A stretch of 62,973 nucleotides of DNA, the filler included, from Aduncisulcus paluster (lineage: Eukaryota), in assembly GCA_024181965.1 (NCBI GenBank). It is 11 parts of 11 records of this genome, joined end to end, with 100 filler letters (N's around TTAATTAATTAA, not from the genome) between each part and the next. Parts side by side here need not be neighbours in the genome. Positions count along the whole stretch, not along the records: positions 46,948 to 49,420 come from BQXS01000129.1; 10 more parts are not named here. One strand, 5' to 3'. How positions within the stretch are numbered: position 1 is the stretch's first letter; each line of letters begins with the position of its first letter. Made by a program: the position numbers and the translations under genes. Under the pieces are notes generated by a model, which worked only from the letters and a program-made list of their open reading frames with translations, made no database searches and was not told where the DNA came from. This document shows, piece after piece, positions 11,629 to 49,520 of the stretch.

Positions 11629-14600
11629 TCAAGGCTTCATATGATTCCTCTTTCCTGGGAATTGATTAGTGGGATTGAATAAAATATCAACAAACCCACC
11701 ACTAAGTTCGAATAGGTAATAAAATGAATATAATCCCTCAATCCTATCTTCATATTCAATAGAAATATTACATACATCAATATTCTGGATAAATGTTGGG
11801 GGGATGTCATGGGGTCCAATTGAAACATCATCCGAGGTTTGAATAGTTGGAATTCCTCGATGGAATTTGGAATGCTGAGATTCACAATAATGCAGTAATT
11901 TGTTGAAATTAAGATGAGGGAAACGAGGAGATGTTGTATCAGAACTCTGTTGAGCTAATCTTTTCAATTTTGTCTCAATATCAACGGGAATATTCAGAAT
12001 TTGATGAGTGTATTTGGGTTGAAGAAATGGTTTTAGAAAAATTGGATCTGGATTAAATGGAAACCCTGTCGCAGTGAGCTCATCAAGTTTGAAATCAATT
12101 GAAGCTGTGATTATAACCTTCGAAATTAACAACTTCTCGAATTCTGGAGGAACAAAATATTTCCATACATGTCCACGAAAGTTTTTCTGAACCAAGAAAT
12201 TAGTATCAACATATTTCTTTGGATTTTTTGGATTTTCTACAACCTTTCGATCATGAATATCCATATCCATATCAAGCGCTTTCTTAAAGACAAATTCAAT
12301 TTGAATGGTGTATGGAACAATCGACAAAGATGTTCGATCACCATGATCAATCAAAATATCTCCCTCAATTGAGGATGTGTGAAAGGGAATTGGGAATGAA
12401 TAAGTCTCATGGAATGGAGAATGTTCTTCAAAAATCCAATCACAAATAGGAATAAAATCAAGATAGTTGAACTGGGACCCCATGAGATTAAAAGGAGAAT
12501 CAGAATACATAATACGACTTCGAAATGAATCACGATCAGAATAATGAGTGATTTGTTCATTTCGTTGAGGAAAGAAGTGGGAAGTATAAACAAAACTTGT
12601 CAATAATATAGGACAAAATTGGAAGGACATAAATTGAGAGGGAAAATAAGACACCAAACGGGCCATTTTTGAGGCGTAAGACTTTCCAAAATGTTTAGAA
12701 TCTTCATATTTCTGACAAATTCGAAAATAGAGAAACTTGAAAGGTAGTTTGGAAGCAGCATATGAGATAATAAATTTTCGATATTCCAGTGTCAACATTG
12801 AATTATCGTCTATTATAATATCATCTGGCTTAGACTTGTTCAACACAGTCTCAATATGAAATAGTTGATGTGATGGATAACCTCTATATGTTTCAAGGGA
12901 AAAATGTATTCCCAACTGTCTATCTGGAGTTATAAGTGTGGAGGGAGTTTCCAAAGGTAACAATGATACGAAAGGTTTAAGTGACGCATTCAATCCAAAA
13001 GTATTTTCAAGTCCAAAAAATTTGATATTTTGGTAAACATCAGGAGTCACGTGTGTAACATCGAATAACGGGTTCATAAGCTTAATAACTTCTAATAAGA
13101 CAGAATTAAAGCATGTCTTATCACTAAATGCATTGGAAATAAAATAAGAGACTCGATCGGCACTGGGGGATAGTAGATGAGCAGTTCTAGGAAGGAAATG
13201 GAGCAAAATATCAACAAATTGATCATATTTGGGTGGGACAAGACTGTTAGGTGGGGAATATGCTTCAAAATATACTGATTTACGCTTAATCCAGCACGGA
13301 ATAAATCTTAATAGTGGCCAACAATCAAAATTGAATGAATTATACTTTTCTTCACACATCGAAAAACATTTGAAAGTAATTGTTTCCAAACTTTTCAGTC
13401 CCAAAAGAGATCGAGATTCAAGATGTTTTTCAAGAAGATTATCATGTATTTTTGATTGTTTAAAACCAGTGAAATCAGTGAAAAGGATAGGTGAAGTATC
13501 AACGATAAGCTTACATAGTCGGGGTAATACATGCGGAAGGGAAAGATCCTCAGTGTTTACAAAACATGGAACAATCGTGTGAGATATATTCAATTCTCTT
13601 AGATGGGAAAAATAAGACAACGCATTTAGAAATCTTTCTTCAATCTTTTTGGCAGAAGAAATGCAAGAATCGCCTTCCTCACTGAAGAGTGGTTGATCTG
13701 GATTGAATGTTATTTTCATATTGTTTTTCGATATGTCAAGTGATTTTATCTGAATGGAACTGAGAGCTTTGGCGCCGAATTCAAAGCTTTCTAATGTTAA
13801 TTGAGAATTACAAAAACAAAAATGGCGAATGGATGAGAAGAAAACCGGAATATCATAACAAAGCTTTTTCCAGTTCAATGCTGGTGATCTGAGAATTGAG
13901 AAAGATAGAATAGAAGAGGAATCATCTGTCTGAGCAGAGTGAGAAGAACTTACAAAAGCAGAATTAAACACCGAATAAGGAGAATTATCAATAGATCTTT
14001 GTGTTTTTCTCCTTATTTTATCCAGAAGATGAATCCCAATCCCAAGTGGAGGACCATCAATCGTGATTGAAGTTGCATTGGGAAATAATCCAAGAATTAT
14101 TTCAATATATTGGCATAGTATATCGGATGGATAAATAGAAACTTCTCTTACTGATAAATTTGAATGGCCCTTAACTTTTTTTTGTAATTCTTTTCGCGTT
14201 ATTGGGGAAAATATATTTCTATCCAAACCGGGAGATGGTGCTCCCAAATAAAGTCGTGTTAAATGAGGCATATTACAAATCATAATGAGAAATTCTGGCA
14301 ATTTATACATCAAATTATTGTATGAACAGAATTGGTTCNNNNNNNNNNNNNNNNNNNNTGATTGAAGTTGCATTGGGAAATAATCCAAGAATTATTTCAA
14401 TATATTGGCATAGTATATCGGATGGATAAATAGAAACTTCTCTTACTGATAAATTTGAATGGCCCTTAACTTTTTTTTGTAATTCTTTTCGCGTTATTGG
14501 GGAAAATATATTTCTATCCAAACCGGGAGATGGTGCTCCCAAATAAAGTCGTGTTAAATGAGGCATATTACAAATCATAATGAGAAATTCTGGCAATTTA

Positions 14601-21201: not shown

Positions 21202-21302
21202 NNNNNNNNNNNNNNNNNNNNNNNNNNNNNNNNNNNNNNNNNNNNTTAATTAATTAANNNNNNNNNNNNNNNNNNNNNNNNNNNNNNNNNNNNNNNNNNN
21301 NG

Positions 21303-21683
21303 GTTAAGATCAGCACTCATATGTTTAATTCTGTATCAGGGCAGAAGAGCGAGGCCCAATATATTATTCCAAATGGAAAGGAAGAAGAAGACATCTCGTT
21401 TTCCTTCTGCGGGACTTCTGTGACCGATTGTGACCATGGCCAATGCTACCTTCGTGGATGTACTGAGAAGGGAGCAGACATTGTGTTGAAAACGACAACT
21501 GGTGAAAAATTTAGAATTGAAGTGAAGATATTACAAGGAATAAGTCATAGTTATGTGTGTGAAGATTGTGATTTGTTTATTTGCTATTCTACACCTGAAG
21601 AGATTGCAAAGGAAATCAAGAAAAAAACAAAACACAAATATTACTGTTTATATATTCCTTTCCCAAGGGGTTCATTCCATTAG
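21303..21683 (+). CDS. C-terminal fragment with a PD-(D/E)xK nuclease-like motif
   Basis: GADIVLKTTTGEKFRIEVK fits D-x(n)-E-x-K; the frame is open from the scaffold start. Confidence 0.4.
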   Translation, partial: VKISTHMFNSVSGQKSEAQYIIPNGKEEEDISFSFCGTSVTDCDHGQCYLRGCTEKGADIVLKTTTGEKFRIEVKILQGISHSYVCEDCDLFICYSTPEEIAKEIKKKTKHKYYCLYIPFPRGSFH

Positions 21684-22316
21684 GAAGTTATGCTGTAACT
21701 TGTCGATACCAGCCCGAAAGAACATCTATAAAAGTTAGTTAGCTTAATTCACGAGTAATAAAACGTCTTAATCTATTAATGCGATTAGTTTTTGATTACT
21801 ATTTTCACTCCTTGATCCACTGGATGGATTGGGTAGTCCGTAGTTCCTTTTTTTCGTCTCTGATTCTGGGCCAGATCGCAACCCAATCGCATAATTCCCA
21901 ATAAGCAGAAAATAATTAATTCCAGGACTTTTCTTGTTGACAATATTTTTATTATGCGACTCTCAAGTCACCGCTCAAGTCCAATAAACTTAACCATTTT
22001 CGTCACGTGTCTTTAAATCTATTCTAAATTTTCTACAAATATTTACTAAATAGAACGTATATATTTTCCATATAGCTATTATTGTCGCGACAGTAACGAC
22101 CAATCTTCAATAACTCGCCGACTCGTCAATTCAGAGTTGATTTGAAGACATACGGTTTATTGTCAAGACCCAACTAACTCGCCATCAAATTAAATTGACG
22201 ACAGAAGTCAAATTCTTATATTATTTGCATTTATATGGCATTGTCACAATGGCACCACGGTGGTGATCTCCGGAACACAACATATGGTTAGCCCAGTATT
22301 TCTTTGATTTTTTTGA

Positions 22317-23736
22317 GAAGTTCAAATTCACTCATGCTTTGATCCCGTTTTTGATGATTCTGAGGTTTCTGATGTTATTTCCTCCAAGTCCTTCTCGACT
22401 GATGGAATCACACGTCCTGTGATGTGTGTTCCGCTCTATTCGACTATCTTGTTTGATGTTAGCAGTGGTGTTTATCCAATGTATGCCAGTACGAGTCTAT
22501 TGAATGATAATCCTTCGTATGATACCGGATATCTCGAAGATATTGAGAGTGCCATGCTCAATCAGCTTAGTACCACTCTTGTTGGTGTTACCTTCAATCA
22601 GAGCGGACATTATGTATTTTCCACATCCGTTGATACATACAAACAGATGTTTTTACTTGTGTCCGAATATGGTGAAGGTTGTCCATCGAATTATATTTCC
22701 TCGACCAATTCTGATAGTTTGGTTACTTTCAACTTTCCTCAGGTTATTGACTCAACCCTTTTACTCACTCCCAATTGGACTCTGATCATTGTGTGTACAT
22801 TGGTTGCCCTCTTGATTGTTATTCTCCTCATTGGAGGATTCTACCTTTTCTCAAGGGTATTGTGGGGTGATCCGATCTTTAACGAACCTTCTTACCGGTT
22901 GAATACCAAGTTCCAAGATTATGATGACTTTGCCTCGAAGGGTTCGAATGTTCGTGTTGTGAAGAGAACAAGAAACACTGGTATCGTCGATCGGAAGACG
23001 ATGGAATCTTGCAGTAAGGCTACCAAGAAGAGGGATCCCGAGGATGAAAAGGTTATCCTCGAGATATCAAAGGCAGAACGTGATAGGATGGGTAGAAACA
23101 ATGAAAGTAATTTATTGCCTGATTTGAATAAGAAAAAGAAGAAGAGAGGTCGTAAGAATGCCACGGNNNNNNNNNNNNNNNNNNNNTTCTTACCGGTTGA
23201 ATACCAAGTTCCAAGATTATGATGACTTTGCCTCGAAGGGTTCGAATGTTCGTGTTGTGAAGAGAACAAGAAACACTGGTATCGTCGATCGGAAGACGAT
23301 GGAATCTTGCAGTAAGGCTACCAAGAAGAGGGATCCCGAGGATGAAAAGGTTATCCTCGAGATATCAAAGGCAGAACGTGATAGGATGGGTAGAAACAAT
23401 GAAAGTAATTTATTGCCTGATTTGAATAAGAAAAAGAAGAAGAGAGGTCGTAAGAATGCCACGGATGATCCTGAAAACGAAGCTTCTGAGCAGTTTGAGG
23501 ATCTTGGGTCTTTGAAGAAAGGCGGAGAAACTGAGGGTTCGGAAGATGTCCATAATCCCATGGCTGAACCTAAGGAAGGTGAAGAATTCCCAATCCCAAT
23601 CGAGGGACAGCCCTCAGACCAACCACATCAAGATGCTGAGCATTCCCTTGGTGATCCATCTGCTTCTCACTCGAGAGGTGAAGAAGGTGAAGAAGGTGAA
23701 TGTGGTAGTCTAATACACCACCAGAGTGTTATTTGA
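22317..23736 (+). CDS. Fragment of a single-pass membrane protein; lacks a clear start and ends in an LTR-like insert
   Basis: YPMYASTSLLNDNPSYDTG...VTFNQSGHYVFS, a TM helix WTLIIVCTLVALLIVILLIGGFYLF and a charged tail. Duplicated around gap 23167-23186; in-frame stop at 22314. Confidence 0.55.
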
Positions 23737-23854
23737 TGATTTGGTATTAATATTTATGTTAGTTTTATTGTTAGGAGCTAACAGTTGTATTAGGTGACAA
23801 GACATGTCATTATGTCTTGTCAGTTGTTGAATGTTATAAATAAATTGGCCCACA
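23701..23854 (+). mobile_element. Candidate short LTR (154 bp)
   Basis: TGTGG...CCACA terminal inverted repeat, internal 11-bp hairpin TGACAAGACAT/ATGTCTTGTCA, and AATAAATTG near the 3' end. No target-site duplication seen. Confidence 0.45.
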
Positions 23855-23894
23855 GGAAGAAAATTATTATATTTTATTAAAGGGAATTTAAGAA

Positions 23895-23994
23895 TGTCGA
23901 ACCACAGGGGGTTCTGGTGTATTGGTGATACAATTTATTATAGAACGGGCGGTTGCCGGCTCGGACCGGTAAGAGGACACAACACTTCCCCCCC
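23895..23994 (-). mobile_element. 3' LTR (23984-23895, 90 bp) with polypurine tract (23994-23985)
   Basis: Minus strand reads GGGGGGGAAG|TGTTGTG...TAATAAATTGT...TTCGACA; it shares CCGCCCG..TAATAAATTGT with the LTR at 45091-44968. Confidence 0.7.
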
Positions 23995-24521
23995 AGAGCC
24001 AAAACCAACCGGTCGTTATCAATAAAGACTTCTATTACAAAGGATTCTAACTGTTCCTCTATTCTCTGGTATTACAGAACTTTCTTCCACTCTTCAACTA
24101 GAGAGACTCTCTCTGGGTTGTCATTTGAATACTATTCGATTTTCTCCGCTGTGTTCCTTCTGGATCCACAGGCTTGTTCGCGTATGATGGCTCAGCTCAT
24201 TGTAACTTTCAATCCTTCCGCTGTGTAGCCACAACTTCTTTCCTTGAGCGTCTTGAACTCTAAAGAACTCAAATCTCGATTGAACGCAAAACTCTATCTT
24301 GAATCTTCTGATTCTTGCTGAAACTCAAACACACTTCCCTTCCCTCCTCAGTGAGGATCAGGAGATTCTACATTGTTCATGCCAAGGTCTCTCACTGTAC
24401 GTTCAGCACATCACTGTAAAANNNNNNNNNNNNNNNNNNNNNNNNNNNNNNNNNNNNNNNNNNNNTTAATTAATTAANNNNNNNNNNNNNNNNNNNNNNN
24501 NNNNNNNNNNNNNNNNNNNNN

Positions 24522-25971: not shown

Positions 25972-27811
25972 TTACTGAGAGAAAACATAATTCATTGTTT
26001 TGATAATTTCTTGTTCTAATGTTTGTACTTTTGTCTTTTTCCCAATGATACTCCTTTCCTTTTCATCAATTAATGTGTCTACTTCTCTTAATTCTGCCTC
26101 GAGTAAACGAATTCTGTCCTCTTGAGCAGCCCTAACCTTGGATAACTCAGCCTTCAATCTCTCCGATTCTTCTTTCCATTGTTTATGCTCATGGATCATG
26201 GATTCACTGTCTTCACGAACGCTGAGAAGAGCATGTCCAAAGGGTGTCACACCTCCAGCTGCTCTCTGTAACAGTTGACCAATGCTCTGAGCATGGGAAG
26301 GATGTGAGAGATCTTCAGTCTCATCAAGCTTCTGTGCCTCCAGAACTTTGGCAACGAGCACACCATGACTCACATTGTCACCCGTAACTCCCTCATCGAC
26401 CACGACAACGCCCATCATCATCCTCGGCAATAGGAGCCTTATCAGCGACTTGGGCTGTTTCTTCCTCCATCTGTTTCTGCTGTTGCATCCTTGTCCTCAT
26501 TCTGGAAGGAGGAGCACGCCTGGCTGTCTTAGGACGGGTCTGACGAATTGATCTGAGTTCCATGGCCTTTCTCTCTTCCTCAGCAAGACGAGGATCAACG
26601 GAAGGCATCTTTATCTGGTCTTGGTCAAATCCTTCATGGGAAACCATCATTGGAGCATGTTTCTCTTGTGGTTTCTCTTTTTCATCATACATGAATGACT
26701 GTTTTTGTGATCTTATACTCTCCCTCTCTTCCCTCTCTTCCATTTCTCTCTCTCTCTTCTCTCTCTCTCTCCTCTCTTTTTCCCTTCTCTCCTTTTCTCT
26801 TTCTTCTCTTTCTTCTCTTTCTTGCTGCTCTTCCATTTCCATCCTTTCTCTTTCTCTCCGCTGTTCTTCTTCTTGTCTAGCTTCTTCATTTCTTGCAGCT
26901 TCCTCCTCTTCTCGCCTTATTTTCTGGTTTTCTTCCTCTATTTTACGTTTTCTCTCTTCTTCAGCTCTTCTCTTAGCTTCTTCAGCCTCTTTCTTTTTCC
27001 TCTCCTCCACTTCGCGATCCTCGCCAGCATCGCCGCCTTGTTCCTTATGTTCGTGCTCTTTCTTACGTTGCATCTTCTCCATNNNNNNNNNNNNNNNNNN
27101 NNCCCTTCTCTCCTTTTCTCTTTCTTCTCTTTCTTCTCTTTCTTGCTGCTCTTCCATTTCCATCCTTTCTCTTTCTCTCCGCTGTTCTTCTTCTTGTCTA
27201 GCTTCTTCATTTCTTGCAGCTTCCTCCTCTTCTCGCCTTATTTTCTGGTTTTCTTCCTCTATTTTACGTTTTCTCTCTTCTTCAGCTCTTCTCTTAGCTT
27301 CTTCAGCCTCTTTCTTTTTCCTCTCCTCCCCTTCGCGATCCTCGCCAGCATCGCCGCCTTGTTCCTTATGTTCGTGCTCTTTCTTACGTTGCATCTTCTC
27401 CATAGCACGCTCATAAGCTGCACTAAGTTTCTCAAGATTGACATCTTTCTGAGAGGCCTCAACAAAGAGGAAAAGAAGATCTAAAGTAGTTTCAATGCCA
27501 GTTCGGTCCAATATACCTGAAATAATATGAGGAATTTTCTCTGGAAGTTTCTTTTTAGTTACCATATATACCAATCGAATTACTTTAGTTAAAAAGTTTC
27601 CTTTTAACTCATTATCAGTCAAAGCCTTTATATCGTCATCTTCACCGAATAATTGATCTGGAGGAAAGCTTGTTTTCTTTCTAGTTTCTCGCACAAGATG
27701 ATAAATGAATTTAAATGAAGGCTTTTCGAAATATTTCTCTTTTAAAGGCATTTTTGAGCCTTCTAATATAGTTTTAAACTCTTCATAGATTTTAGTGACT
27801 TTTTCTTCCAT
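25972..27811 (-). CDS. IFT54: IFT54/TRAF3IP1 (MIP-T3) intraflagellar transport protein, with a 1-nt frameshift near 26412
   Basis: N-terminal CH-like EKPSFKFIYHLV, central RPKTARRAPP, HGVLVAKVLE and a C-terminal coiled coil. An extra G in GGG (26411-26413) separates the two ORFs. Confidence 0.85.
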
Positions 27812-44578: not shown

Positions 44579-45091
44579 ATGGCTTTTATCGACAGCTAAA
44601 GCTGTTTCGCCAGGTTCTGTCGAACCTGGGAGACCTGGTGACACATTCCCCTTCCGGGTGATGTCATGAACCAGATCTCCTCTGATGGCTTTACCTGTGC
44701 CCCCAACCTCCGTGGAGGAAGGGATGAGCACAGCACCACCAGATGGGTTAGCTTGCCGAAGGGTTCTGACCCCGGATACTGAGCTATTTTCAACGAGATG
44801 ACTCATTGTCAAATCCAGGGGAGTCTTTGACTTCCTTTTATCAGTTAACATGATAAACTTTTGTTTATCTCCGGAATCCCTTTGGGATTCGCTCGTGCCT
44901 AGAGGTTTTCCTCTTTCGGCCATCAAATCAAAAGTAAGACTATTATCACGTACAGTAAAATGCATTTTGTGGTAGTACTAAACAAATAAACCTAAAAATC
45001 TTTTATACGGATCGTAACGGTTCCACAATTTATTAAATATCTGATCGGGCGGTAATCAACCGGTACCGCCTGTGCCCAGCCGCCGCCAACA
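44579..45091 (-). mobile_element. 5' end of an LTR element: LTR 45091-44968 (124 bp), palindrome 44968-44957, ORF from 44965 or 44923 truncated at the scaffold end
   Basis: TGTTGG...CCACA termini, GGCGGTA/TACCGCC hairpin, TAATAAATTGT, then AAAATGCATTTT and an open frame. A gag identity for the ORF is not demonstrable in the part seen. Confidence 0.65.
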
Positions 45092-45402
45092 CTTGTCTAC
45101 CCGATTATCCCTACTAGGGATGGATAGTATCCATTCATTGCCGTTTTAAGATCAGCAAAAACCCCACTATTATCTACTTCGAACTTAAAATATCCACATA
45201 GCACTATTTTGCACGTTTCAAACTCTCCACATTCAAGGAAACCGATATTTGTTGTTCTATTCCTCAATTTGCTATTATAATGCAAATAAAAATTGAATTT
45301 GTAATAAAATGGTGCATTATCCAACCTTTTTTGACAAATTTAATAAATATGTGTGGGACCTCCATATTTTTTTGAAAAACTCATCTTCCTTGTCCAACAC
45401 CA

Positions 45403-46847
45403 ATGAATTTTGGAGCCTTATCCCATCTATTTCGACCAGTTGTATCTTCGAAACCGGCCCCAGTCAAAAATACAAAGGCTGAACCTGACCCCGAAAGTGT
45501 CGATGTGTTAAGCCTTGTAATGAATCCTTTATTTACAAATAGGATGAGATCCTATCAAAAATATGAAGTTGATGCTATTAGTAAGGAGTTACCCGGTCTG
45601 ATGAAGTATTATTTCACACCTCTTTTGAAAAAACATATGCTTCCCGATAATGTTGCCATTTTTAAAGGAATCGATGCCTTATTTTCAAGATCTCTTATAT
45701 TACCTAGTGGTAATCATAAAGAAATAATAGAAAAGATAGCTTCCCAGGATAATATTCTATCTCAGGCCTTTTTTTGCCTTCAGTGTATTTTATCCCCAAA
45801 TGAGATCTTTCATCTGAAAAAAGGGAAAATTTCCGAGCCCATTGAGATAATTGTTCCGGAATTTAAAGAACCAATCCCATTTTCAAGGGAGTCGGAGCCG
45901 TCGAAGGATTTCCAGCACTCTCTTGGAAAACGTTTTAAGGAATATATTGAGAAGATAAATGATTTTTCTAAGAAACAAAAAACACCACCAAAAAAAAAGA
46001 TAGTCTCTTCACCTCTTGACATTCTTGATGATGTGATTGGCGCTGAATTAAAAGAATTAAAAGCCATCTTCCCCAGTAAGCCATTTAAACATTTAGAAGG
46101 CAAACCCCCTGTTTATAATGGCCACCCTTCTTCTATTTCGAGTGCCCATCGATTCTTTGTTGAGCGTAGTGTGTTGCAGTCGATGGAATTGCCAGCGTCT
46201 GAATCTGACGTTTTTCGCAACTATAAATGGTTATTGAAGAAAAGAAAGCCCCATCCCACGTCAGACTTTCATACTAAAGCCTTCTTTGGCTCCGCTATGT
46301 CCTCCAAGGAGAGAAAGAAACACGAGAAAGAGGTCGAAGCAAGAGTTATAGAGTGGACAGCAGAAAACGAGAAATGGATTGCTTACCAGACCGAAGAGGC
46401 TGAAAAATTGGATGACGCTGCGCGTTTTGCGATCCCCCCGCCAGATCCATGGAAACCAGTCGAGATTACTGACTTTATGCGATCATTCGAAGGTGAAGAA
46501 TGTGAGGAGCCCATGTTTCCATTCACTGATTGCACTCATGTTCTCAGAGTCAGGTGTGATCGTGCTGCCACCATGTTATCTGTAATAGCCCGATATTTTC
46601 CTCAGAGGATGTATGACTTCTTGAAAGCTCATCCCTGGTGCCTTGAAGTTCTGTGCGAATCTATTGCTATTCCGTGTGTTCAAGATCTCTTCGCCACCAT
46701 CTTAACTGGTGTGATGCGCAGTGATCAAATGAAGTATCCCTTCGACACTACTATACGGGCCGATGCTCAGAATCGTTATGATGATTGTCCATTTGCTTTG
46801 CACCCAATTGTCGAGAATGTTCTGCCTTCGTTCAATCACATTGAAGA
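45403..46847 (+). CDS. Unknown protein, possibly SAPS/PP6-regulatory-subunit-like, 3'-truncated
   Basis: Long ORF; QRMYDFLKAHPWCLEVLCESIAIPCVQDLF weakly resembles SAPS-domain helices. The family call is tentative. Confidence 0.45.
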
Positions 46848-46947: not shown

Positions 46948-47367
46948 ATCTGGAATTCGTAGACAGCGTCCAGACCCGTGGTAGCACCAAAGTACGCAGA
47001 AACTGTTGTCAAAAAGGAAATTTCTCGTTCTTTGACTTGTTCTTCTGTACAACCTGAAGGGTCCTCGAGAACAGCATCCGTCACGTCCAGGTAGATAATT
47101 AACACCTCAGGTGGGATTAATCCGAACAAGGTTGCCTTCCCGCCCAGCGCTCGATATTGGCGAAACTTTTTCAAAAAACTTCGGAAAATAGATTTTTCCC
47201 AAACCCAAATAAAATAGGAGCAGCCTTAATCGGCTGTAACTGTGGATTACTCATAGAAAAATAATTATTTTGTACTATGATTGGTACAATTTATTAAATA
47301 AAAATAGAACGAACAGTTGGATCTAAAAATAGATATGTGAGAAACATTAAAATAATTATCCGTAACA
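46948..47367 (-). mobile_element. Nested LTR element B: LTR 47367-47271 (97 bp), palindrome 47271-47258, gag from ATG 47254 (1-nt frameshift in A run near 47195), truncated
   Basis: TGTTAC...GTACA. Repaired gag MSNPQLQPIKAAPILFGFGKKSIFRSFLKKFRQYRALGGK aligns with element A gag (QPFLDTVTTKSWTDFVSEYQHYRSLGGK). The LTR shares TCTATTTTTAGA and TTTAATAAATT with LTR A. Confidence 0.75.
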
Positions 47368-48600
47368 CTTGTCGGCTTGAGTCATTGGTTGGCCCCATGA
47401 TATGAGGCCCGCTGCTTCAATGCATCTGGCTGATAGGATTAACCTCTCCGATGGGTTCGTGAGTTTGGTGATGATACATGTCTCTTCAAATACCACCGAG
47501 GCTCCGTCAAACCCGGGCACCTTGATGAGAAGATGAATACTATTCGTGGAAGTCATTTCACCACCCTCGATTCCTGAGAGGATCACAGGATGTGTCTCCT
47601 TTATCTCTTCCTTCCAGTTGTTCGCGAGCGATTCGTCGATGACCGATACATCTGCCCCCGTATCTAAAAGGGCGTGTGTCGTTTGTATGTTGGTCCCTTC
47701 ATCAGTGCTAAGCCATACCTCTCTTCGAGCTTTGCTGGTATTAATCACATTCATCCGGTACTTAGGGGAGGCTTTACTGGGAACCTCTTGGCAAGCGCTG
47801 GCATAGTGACCAACCTTGTGGCACTTATTACAGATGACTCCTGGGAAGAATCTCTTGTAGCGAGGGTCTCTGTGTTTGATGAATGCTCGGGGTGGGCGTT
47901 CCCCCTTACTGTGTCTCTTACTGCTTGTTACCCTCTCTGCCGATGTCTGTCGAGGAAAACGTCGCTTGCCCACTCTTGACGGGCAGTCCCGAGCTTTGTG
48001 TCCTTTTCCTCCACACTCGAAGCAAATGATGGTCGTTGGTGCGTCTGCTGGAGTAGGAGTACCACGAGTAATTCTGACTTCGGCCTCATTTGCAAGCATC
48101 AGGCGAACCTGGCAAGCAGCCACTGTCACCAGTTCGGGTACTCGGTATTCCTCTGAGGGAATAGATGCTGTCACTCTTTCCACCAAGCGAGTGGGGCGAA
48201 GGCCCTTAATAAAGAGCTCTGCTACCATTTTCGGGTCTGGTTTCACTAGCGCACGGCCGAGAGTGTCCACAAAGTCCTGGGCGAACTGGATGAAGTTGTC
48301 CACGGTCAGCGGTAGCTTTACAGTGAGAAGTCGTAACTTATCGTACAACTCGATGTTAGTTGTCGTGGAAAAAAGCTTTTCGGTCTCCAAGAAAGCGTTG
48401 TCGCGCTGCGTCTGCAAATCGAACGTCGTGACCCCAGAAATAGTCGAAATGAATCGTAAGGCAGAAACCGAACACATAGCCGGCCATTCCACCTTCCCTC
48501 CAAGGGAGCGGTAGTGCTGATACTCGGAAACAAAGTCAGTCCAGCTTTTTGTTGTGACAGTGTCCAAAAACGGTTGAATAATCTTGTCCTTTTTGTCCAT
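47356..48600 (-). CDS. Ty3/gypsy-like Gag-protease of element A, interrupted by element B
   Basis: Two CCHC knuckles (CFECGGKGHKARDC, CNKCHKVGHYASAC) and aspartic protease ALLDTGADVSVI. The last codons (CYG*) come from LTR B. Confidence 0.88.
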   Translation of the reverse strand: MDKKDKIIQPFLDTVTTKSWTDFVSEYQHYRSLGGKVEWPAMCSVSALRFISTISGVTTFDLQTQRDNAFLETEKLFSTTTNIELYDKLRLLTVKLPLTVDNFIQFAQDFVDTLGRALVKPDPKMVAELFIKGLRPTRLVERVTASIPSEEYRVPELVTVAACQVRLMLANEAEVRITRGTPTPADAPTTIICFECGGKGHKARDCPSRVGKRRFPRQTSAERVTSSKRHSKGERPPRAFIKHRDPRYKRFFPGVICNKCHKVGHYASACQEVPSKASPKYRMNVINTSKARREVWLSTDEGTNIQTTHALLDTGADVSVIDESLANNWKEEIKETHPVILSGIEGGEMTSTNSIHLLIKVPGFDGASVVFEETCIITKLTNPSERLILSARCIEAAGLISWGQPMTQADKCYG

Positions 48601-48610
48601 ACGAGATATT

Positions 48611-48715
48611 CAATATTAATATTGTTATCTTCTATGAAGACTTGGATCAAATTTATTAAAAATAAACGGTTGTCGATCGGAGTTCTAAAAATAGACCAAT
48701 GAGAATCTCACAACA
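48611..48715 (-). mobile_element. 5' LTR of element A (48715-48623, 93 bp) plus palindrome 48624-48611
   Basis: TGTTGT...ATAACA termini, TTTAATAAATTTG, then CAATATTAATATTG; gag ATG is 22 nt after the LTR end. Confidence 0.72.
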
Positions 48716-48765
48716 ATGCGATGAAAGAAAAAGTTGTGGTGAATAACAATAAAAATACTTGTGGC

Positions 48766-48836
48766 TGTAGCAAATTTACTTTAATAGACTTCAATGGTCA
48801 TAATGCTTGTCATGTCATCCCTCATGACAAGCTACA
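48766..48836 (-). mobile_element. Candidate 71-bp solo mini-LTR or MITE
   Basis: TGTAGC...GCTACA terminal inverted repeat, 10-bp hairpin GCTTGTCATG/CATGACAAGC and ATTAAA. No target-site duplication. Confidence 0.4.
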
Positions 48837-48860
48837 GTACCTTACAGTACGTTAATAAAA

Positions 48861-48933
48861 TACATCTCCTGGGACTTGAACCCAGGACTAGCAGTACAGC
48901 AGACAGCTGCCATACCAACTGAACCATATATGA
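48861..48933 (-). pseudogene. Degenerate tRNA or tRNA-derived Pol III unit (nominal anticodon GCT)
   Basis: A box TGGTTCAGTTGG, perfect T arm CTGGG-TTCAAGT-CCCAG, tRNA-like spacing and TTTT downstream. Acceptor, D and anticodon stems have mismatches and there is no long Ser-type variable arm. Confidence 0.6.
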
Positions 48934-49520
48934 CATTTTAATATTTTCATGATTGGATATCTAAAGGTGATCACCACACCCGGCCTTCTTTAATAAGAAA
49001 GCAATAACTAAACAGGTGAGCACTTAATTAAACAAAACAAATTAGTAACCATCATATCCGATAATAAAACGTCATAATACTCCTTAACCTAGAGATCTAA
49101 CACCAATACTATCACATCTCAATAACAAGCACTTTTCACAACTTCAATTAACAAAATACAATTCCAATTAAAATATATGTTCTCAACATAAATTTAACCT
49201 TATATAATTGACTGGGGCATGATTTAGATTTCAGATCGAAAACACAACGACCAAAAATAAATAGCTACAGTTGTATTTCAGGTCATCGATGTTTTACAAC
49301 TGTATACATTTGTATTACAACTTAAAATGCCTCTCAGCATACCTACATAAACATTCAAACACATTTATTTTCTTAGTGGAACTACTAGTTAGAGGAATAA
49401 TTAGTCAAATTACTTCCATTNNNNNNNNNNNNNNNNNNNNNNNNNNNNNNNNNNNNNNNNNNNNTTAATTAATTAANNNNNNNNNNNNNNNNNNNNNNNN
49501 NNNNNNNNNNNNNNNNNNNN

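Follow-up and report, generated by a model that had tools for sequence, protein, structure and literature searches.

How does a long terminal repeat (LTR) retrotransposon begin reverse transcription when a palindrome stands where its primer-binding site (PBS) should be? The question is raised by three elements, here called A, B and C, in a stretch of 62,973 nucleotides (nt) from the Aduncisulcus paluster assembly GCA_024181965.1, hereafter the window. The start of complementary DNA (cDNA) synthesis in LTR elements is thought to be settled as two modes, priming by a host transfer RNA (tRNA) or the fold-back of Tf1, and two odd cases are still without explanation, namely the polypyrimidine site of Skipper and the palindrome of the GalEa elements. 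In A, B and C the place of the PBS is occupied by a palindrome rather than by a tRNA-type TGG site. This suggests tRNA-independent priming through the pairing of two element RNAs, which is the best reading of the data, if an unproven one. On sequence evidence, the three are diverged members of one Ty3/gypsy-like LTR retrotransposon lineage and the host is an Aduncisulcus-like fornicate (Metamonada), a free-living anaerobic flagellate.

The window comprises 11 short contigs joined by separators of the form N44-TTAATTAATTAA-N44, and is not one locus. Elements A and B share a contig of 2,473 bases (46948-49420), element C lies on the contig next to it in the window (44579-46847), and a further LTR, D, is found on a third (21302-24421).

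Palindromes at the 5' LTR junctions

The three 5' LTRs and the palindromes that overlap their ends are as follows.

48623..48712, minus strand: 5' LTR A, 90 nt, TG..CA, bounded by a Logan unitig and by a second contig with unlike flanks
48611..48624, minus strand: palindrome A, perfect, 14 nt, CAATATTAATATTG, starting at the terminal CA of LTR A
47271..47367, minus strand: 5' LTR B, 97 nt, TG..CA, bounded by a loose end, a unitig end and a diverging contig
47258..47271, minus strand: palindrome B, perfect, 14 nt, AAAATAATTATTTT, starting at the terminal A of LTR B
44968..45091, minus strand: 5' LTR C, 124 nt, TG..CA, with bounds set by analogy
44957..44968, minus strand: palindrome C, perfect, 12 nt, AAAATGCATTTT, starting at the presumed terminal A of LTR C

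The initial annotation had described three different perfect palindromes here, each overlapping the terminal (C)A of its LTR, and all are present. They are loop-less and A/T-rich, and the first base of each lies within the last 1-2 nt of the LTR. The symmetry centre, earlier put at 5-7 nt past the LTR end, was measured at 5 nt (A), 6 nt (B) and 5 nt (C). The same annotation was right that a tRNA-type site is missing, the first 20 nt past each of the three LTRs containing no tRNA-complementary TGG PBS, and that the gag ATG follows the LTR by 22 nt in A and 16 nt in B. With the start codon at these distances, a separate PBS has no room. The layout as a whole is compact: LTRs of 90-124 nt, an ATG 16-22 nt beyond them and no place for another primer site.

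We checked the LTR ends by aligning contigs and unitigs from two public runs (Logan unitigs) to the A/B contig at 80% likeness. This check covered LTR A and LTR B; the bounds of LTR C were drawn by analogy with them. A 90-nt Logan unitig spans exactly 48623-48712, at a depth of 4626.7 compared with 1154.7 for the internal contig and 1300.6 for the flanking contig, and in the second run a contig of 2,474 nt has these 90 nt between unlike sequences. Since this copy of LTR A has unrelated sequence past 48623, the LTR must end with the CA at 48624-48623, as originally proposed. The proposed start at 48715 lies three bases outside the repeat shared with the run contigs, which begins at 48712. The intervening TGT (48713-48715) is absent from at least one other copy of LTR A and may be part of the LTR in this one. 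The end of LTR B at 47271 is marked by both a loose end and a unitig end, and a 1,867-nt contig that departs from the window upstream of 47368 passes from an unlike, purine-rich sequence into LTR B, then the palindrome, then gag. The contig ends and the divergence together define LTR B as 47367-47271 and make the purine-rich sequence the purine tract before another copy.

The junctions themselves are uniform in the run data. The unitig covering 48532-48652 crosses palindrome A with no other letters, and run contigs cross the B junction with two gaps, no other letters and no variant at 10% or above. B exceeds its flanks many times over in summed k-mer depth, depth not being equal to copy number. 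Since B is multi-copy and uniform at the junction, it is a working element that carries the palindrome site.

That these palindromes are products of chance in A/T-rich DNA, or of faulty assembly, for instance a fold-back chimera, is an explanation to which we give next to no credence. It has in its favour the 66-78% A+T of the region and a fragmented assembly with duplications beside its N20 gaps. When the 41 nt around each junction were shuffled with that composition kept (200,000 trials per element), a palindrome of at least 12 nt starting no more than 1 nt from the terminal base of the LTR arose in only 373 (A), 655 (B) and 272 (C) trials; anywhere within the 41 nt, the corresponding counts were 3832, 6527 and 2696. 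The junction palindromes are therefore far beyond chance (272-655 in 200,000). The sample is three junctions of one lineage which, A, B and C being related, are not independent draws. As to artefact, independent run contigs cross the A and B junctions, and beyond the repeat one flank is LTR and the other gag, which is not the pattern of a fold-back. A census of the window with separators masked (61,793 non-N bases) gave 19 perfect palindromes of at least 12 nt, three of them the sites of A, B and C and 16 elsewhere.

The differences between the three palindromes are as informative as their shared position. The central tetramers are TTAA (A), AATT (B) and TGCA (C), complementary through the centre in all cases. 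Outward from the centre, the pairs in A/B/C run T-A/A-T/G-C, T-A/A-T/T-A, A-T/T-A/A-T and T-A/A-T/A-T. The palindromes are thus unlike at 4 of the 6 innermost pair positions, always with both sides changed, which bears out the original observation that symmetry and position are kept while sequence varies. Such two-sided changes point to selection for pairing and not to an inherited sequence, so that the variation among A, B and C amounts to a natural compensatory mutagenesis.

A 3' LTR with its polypurine tract is also found in the window.

23895..23984, minus strand: 3' (or solo) LTR D, 90 nt, with no palindrome after it, from the sequence and the palindrome list
23985..23994, minus strand: polypurine tract GGGGGGGAAG, directly upstream of LTR D, from the sequence

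As first annotated, LTR D (23984-23895) has a purine tract before it and no palindrome of at least 12 nt at its end.

Position also bears on whether the palindromes might act as DNA, by binding a dimeric protein or by serving as a Giardia-type A/T-rich initiator for a gag messenger RNA with a short leader. Fornicate promoters, as in Giardia, are short A/T-rich initiators, and the palindromes of A and B are indeed A/T-rich, with the gag ATG 3-10 nt downstream. The spacing from palindrome to ATG is not constant, however: it is 10 nt in A and 3 nt in B, and in C the ATG falls inside the palindrome. The spacing from the LTR end, by contrast, does not change. In addition, the three sequences are too unlike for a single sequence-specific protein, an initiator has no need of perfect symmetry, and an RNA beginning at the palindrome would be without R-U5. 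We consider a DNA-level role improbable.

Possible pairing of two RNAs and a proposed priming step

In A and B the symmetry extends beyond the perfect palindromes.

48596..48638, minus strand: extended imperfect inverted repeat around palindrome A, flank duplex -10.0 kcal/mol
47251..47280, minus strand: extended inverted repeat around palindrome B, flank duplex -5.9 kcal/mol

In A, the U5 segments TTCATA and AGATA pair with TATCT and TATGGA of the leader and gag start; in B, the U5 segment TCATAG pairs with CTATGA, which contains the gag ATG. Shuffled flanks reached the observed duplex energy in 7 (A), 151 (B) and 337 (C, where the effect is weak) of 3000 trials. Predicted homodimers have energies of -20.2 (A), -21.6 (B) and -17.3 (C) kcal/mol, as against -4.0, -4.8 and -2.2 kcal/mol for the predicted monomers. 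Complementarity that continues through the centre favours pairing of two molecules over a hairpin, whose loop would not need it.

The initial annotation had allowed for priming either by snap-back or by the annealing of two packaged RNAs followed by cleavage. The snap-back part now looks unlikely: a folded loop-less palindrome has no template past its 3' end, the palindromes are complementary to the very centre, and the monomers reach only -2.2 to -4.8 kcal/mol.

How the two-molecule alternative might work can be set out in steps. The U5 end of an LTR is the point at which the minus-strand primer is extended. As the U5 end is set by the primer, pairing must take place no more than a few nucleotides from the LTR end, where the palindrome sits, and a second copy of the same RNA is the simplest complement because the site is self-complementary and differs between elements. 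Two element RNAs would first pair through the palindrome. A nuclease, for which the element RNase H is a likely candidate by analogy with Tf1, would then cut one of the strands close to the palindrome's 3' edge. Finally, the 5' fragment so produced, consisting of R-U5 and about 10-12 nt more, would be extended on the partner RNA into its U5-R. Only a palindrome can serve as a site that pairs with its own copy, and this would explain why symmetry and position are kept amid sequence drift. Were the cut symmetric to the LTR end, the primer-template duplex in A, B and C would measure 10-12 base pairs (bp), similar in length to the Tf1 self-primer with its 11 nt. The sequence data establish the anatomy, the ends of LTRs A and B, the non-randomness and the lack of a tRNA-type site; the dimer, the cut and the primer we infer, and we hold it tentatively, at a little under an even chance, that the site is a self-complementary PBS, a version in trans of the self-priming of Tf1.

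The same pairing could serve another end. Palindromes mediate dimerization in retroviruses and Ty1, and the palindrome together with the U5/AUG stem might be a dimerization or packaging signal and nothing more, with some other molecule priming on the same A/T-rich stretch. Loop-less palindromes with strong predicted homodimers, and U5 sequences that in A and B are complementary to the surroundings of the gag start codon, are what such a signal would lead one to expect. It has no need, however, to start exactly with the final 1-2 nt of the LTR in three diverged elements; it leaves the separate PBS without space, given an ATG at 16-22 nt and no TGG; and three unlike A/T-rich sites would require three different host primers. 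On the whole we think a role in dimerization alone unlikely, if deserving of serious attention.

An unusual host RNA, such as an internal tRNA fragment or a small RNA, might also act as primer, with palindromy a side effect. Stretches of 10-14 nt made up of only, or nearly only, A and U are unusual in tRNAs, and such a primer does not predict three different perfect palindromes. ARAGORN found no tRNA in the window. The sole tRNA-like sequence there, at 48933-48861 on the minus strand about 150 nt upstream of LTR A, scores 28.4 bits in Rfam against a gathering score of 29, and matches the palindrome sites over 5 nt at most. Priming by half-tRNAs is known in Ty1/copia lineages (PMC6317226), and gives the idea its precedent, yet a host primer of this kind appears decidedly improbable here.

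Self-priming in cis of the Tf1 type would call for a complement of the site within the LTR. A has nothing longer than 6 nt and C nothing longer than 5 nt, lengths common in shuffles (1158 and 1778 of 2000), and we therefore rejected this mechanism for those two elements. In B there is an 11-nt copy of the junction palindrome, ATAATTATTTT, at 47349-47359 on the minus strand, corresponding to LTR positions 9-19 and so in U3. This copy may let the 3' end of the RNA pair with the 5' primer site, or allow pairing in cis.

Several points weigh against the priming of one RNA by its cut partner. The 11-nt complement of its own site that B carries near the 5' end of the LTR has an equal in only 14 of 2000 shuffles. 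A cut in both strands would strip the PBS from the template bodies, so that the model needs either an asymmetric cut or a third RNA. The junctions number three, from a single lineage, and the end of LTR C among them was placed by analogy only. The two LTRs of one element were in no case seen together, contigs being of 2-3 kb, and the one test against tRNA used a single comparison sequence, that at 48933-48861. Elements A, B and C make the question of priming on an element's own dimer partner directly testable.

The elements, their LTRs and their relatives

The coding sequences that accompany LTRs A and B are the following.

47356..48600, minus strand: element A gag-protease open reading frame (ORF), 414 amino acids, with Pfam matches to zf-CCHC (1.4e-07) and RVP (1e-05)
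46948..47254, minus strand: element B gag start, from ORFs; the contig stops at 46948 and the frame is broken near 47193 in the window copy

The ORF of A is interrupted inside the protease by LTR B, B being nested in A. Among proteins of 726-2070 residues, only two homologues of this ORF were found, both from Aduncisulcus paluster, and the gag-protease of A is 36-49% identical to them. The first, P0001, is a protein of 995 amino acids with gag, protease (PR), reverse transcriptase (RT), RNase H and integrase (IN) regions, 48% identical to A over 97% of the query (6e-117); the second, P0002, matches at 2.3e-54. P0001 has RVT_1 at 527-659 and RT_RNaseH at 725-824, with two RNase H-type domains in all, and ends at the apparent start of an HHCC-like integrase zinc finger, short of the integrase C-terminus. 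Its best match in the PDB is the Ty3 RT 4ol8 (2.4e-51), retroviral RTs scoring 1e-13 or worse. The Ty3-type pol order PR-RT-RNaseH-IN is present in P0001 only, and the window copy ends within PR; a tblastn search of the window with P0001 and P0002 matched element A alone. It is the CCHC knuckle and retroviral protease of A, the domain order of P0001 and its best match to Ty3 RT that make A Ty3/gypsy-like. The CCHC knuckle and protease, with the gag-PR-RT-RNaseH-IN homologues, likewise substantiate the initial identification of LTR retroelements.

The gag of B shares with that of A a conserved YRxLGGK motif. Two nucleotides at 47193 in the gag of B are missing from six run contigs, which make up about half of the summed depth (21,202 of 39,339).

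The four LTRs have in common a core ..ACCG..TAATAAATTG and are otherwise barely alignable, with a mean column identity of 52%. The sequence TAATAAATT(G/T) follows the ..ACCG.. box in all four, at 23931-23940, 45026-45035, 47287-47296 and 48649-48658 on the minus strand; in A, B and D the LTR ends 30-36 nt beyond TAATAAATTG. We note as a guess that TAATAAATTG may be a poly(A) signal of the host type, in which case U5 would be very short; AATAAA occurs no more than 70 nt past the stop codon in 5 of 11 long ORFs. The hexamer GACAAG stands directly before both LTR B (47368-47373) and LTR C (45092-45097) on the minus strand, and LTR D is preceded by ..GAAG. The shared hexamer could be coincidence, a target preference or the remnant of a purine tract.

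Next to LTR A, the summed contig depth over 48691-49271 is 37,000-144,000, whereas the flank reaches about 1,300. In one contig the sequence jumps by 156 nt, from 48938 to 49095. The stretch 48713-49242 looks like a high-copy repeat beside the LTR element, perhaps tRNA-derived and similar to a short interspersed element (SINE-like). Elsewhere in the window, the N20 gaps (for example 1858-1877, 14339-14358, 23167-23186 and 27083-27102) each lie between perfect direct duplications of 150-300 nt, which are probably an artefact of scaffolding or gap closing.

Metagenome contigs provided six distant loci for comparison, with 24-31% identity over the knuckle-protease part. Two of these, L001 and L004, in which 5' junctions were read as positive controls, have a canonical TGGCGACGAGGA.. 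TGG primer site 1 nt after the CA of the LTR. Both elements are about 4.4-4.7 kb long with LTRs of 150-165 nt (321-469 and 4549-4697 in L001, 2066-2229 and 6648-6810 in L004). Only the 3' LTR of L003 was read, no repeats were found in L002 or L006, and L005 was discarded as an LTR junction, its repeats being coding sequence of tandem copies. A search for further junctions gave 47 pattern matches in prokaryote genome contigs and 66 in viral contigs, with none confirmed in either set.

Comparison with known systems

No paper was found on a palindromic PBS under that description, nor any on Aduncisulcus retrotransposons, by searches that had subscription journals and supplements outside their reach. 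No word that starts with retro, repeat or transpos occurs in the announcement of the Aduncisulcus genome. Retroelement cis-signals are here described for the first time from a free-living fornicate.

In Tf1, the first nucleotides of the transcript, which lie inside the LTR, pair in cis with a PBS that is not palindromic. Priming in trans reportedly takes place in Tf1 particles as well. The Tf1/sushi, Tcn1 and TAR lineages are predicted to self-prime (PMC6317226). As in the passages on Tf1/sushi drawn on here, A, B and C would do without a tRNA primer and take their primer from their own cut RNA. The difference is that A and C have no complement of the site in the LTR, and only B has one (11 nt).

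Retroviral leaders resemble these elements in having self-complementary sequence, and in A and B, as in such leaders, U5 pairs with the gag start region. In human immunodeficiency virus 1 (HIV-1), U5 pairs with the region of the AUG. The dimerization initiation site (DIS) of retroviruses is a palindrome of 6 nt carried by a hairpin loop. The palindromes of A, B and C, unlike the retroviral DIS, have no loop, measure 12-14 nt and occupy the PBS position itself. According to the part of the GalEa paper cited here, the hairpin loop with the DIS comes after a PBS that is separate from it (PMC5445492).

Among protist elements, the dictyostelid chromovirus Skipper has a polypyrimidine stretch in place of the PBS, and a novel form of self-priming is suspected in the source passages (PMC5006619). 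Skipper and the elements studied here, as far as those passages describe the former, are both Ty3/gypsy elements of protists in which the TGG PBS has been lost and, B aside, the LTR offers no complement. Where A, B and C have palindromes, however, Skipper has a degenerate polypyrimidine stretch.

The closest parallel is found in the GalEa elements, Copia retrotransposons of fungi. These have no tRNA PBS, and a 9-bp Conserved Hairpin Site is palindromic only if the final A of the 5' LTR is counted in (PMC5445492). The site reads CTGATCAGT or CTAATTAGT in 85% of families and has a second complementary box 12-41 nt downstream; in the part of their paper cited here, the authors consider the mechanism unknown, fitting neither Tf1 nor the DIS nor any described model (PMC5445492). 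A paper on terminal-repeat retrotransposons in miniature (TRIM) of bivalves refers to the GalEa site (PMC6934838). The initial annotation had wondered whether palindromes at this position were undescribed; with the Conserved Hairpin Site as precedent (PMC5445492), they are not wholly new.

So far as the published passages allow the comparison, A, B and C are like GalEa in lacking a tRNA-type PBS and in having a palindrome that counts in the final A (B and C) or CA (A) of the LTR, and the centre lies 4 nt past the LTR end in GalEa and 5-6 nt past it in A, B and C. They differ in belonging to a Ty3/gypsy-like lineage of a metamonad host, not to fungal Copia elements, and in that their palindromes are longer (12-14 nt), A/T-rich and specific to each family, unlike the conserved 9-bp box. 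A search for a downstream box of the GalEa type in A, B and C gave best complements of 5, 6 and 4 nt, which recur in 1299, 622 and 1877 of 2000 shuffles. In contrast to GalEa, the symmetry of A, B and C is prolonged by their flanks and not by a downstream box.

The lineage of A, B and C is thus a second, unrelated one with a palindrome exactly at the U5 edge. It is possible, if on balance rather doubtful, that the two lineages exemplify a third general mode of starting reverse transcription in LTR elements, in which RNAs are paired as a dimer and the cut one primes the other. Were this true, genome dimerization would be tied directly to priming, and the mode would have arisen or been kept independently in the Ty3/gypsy-like elements of a metamonad and the GalEa Copia elements of fungi.

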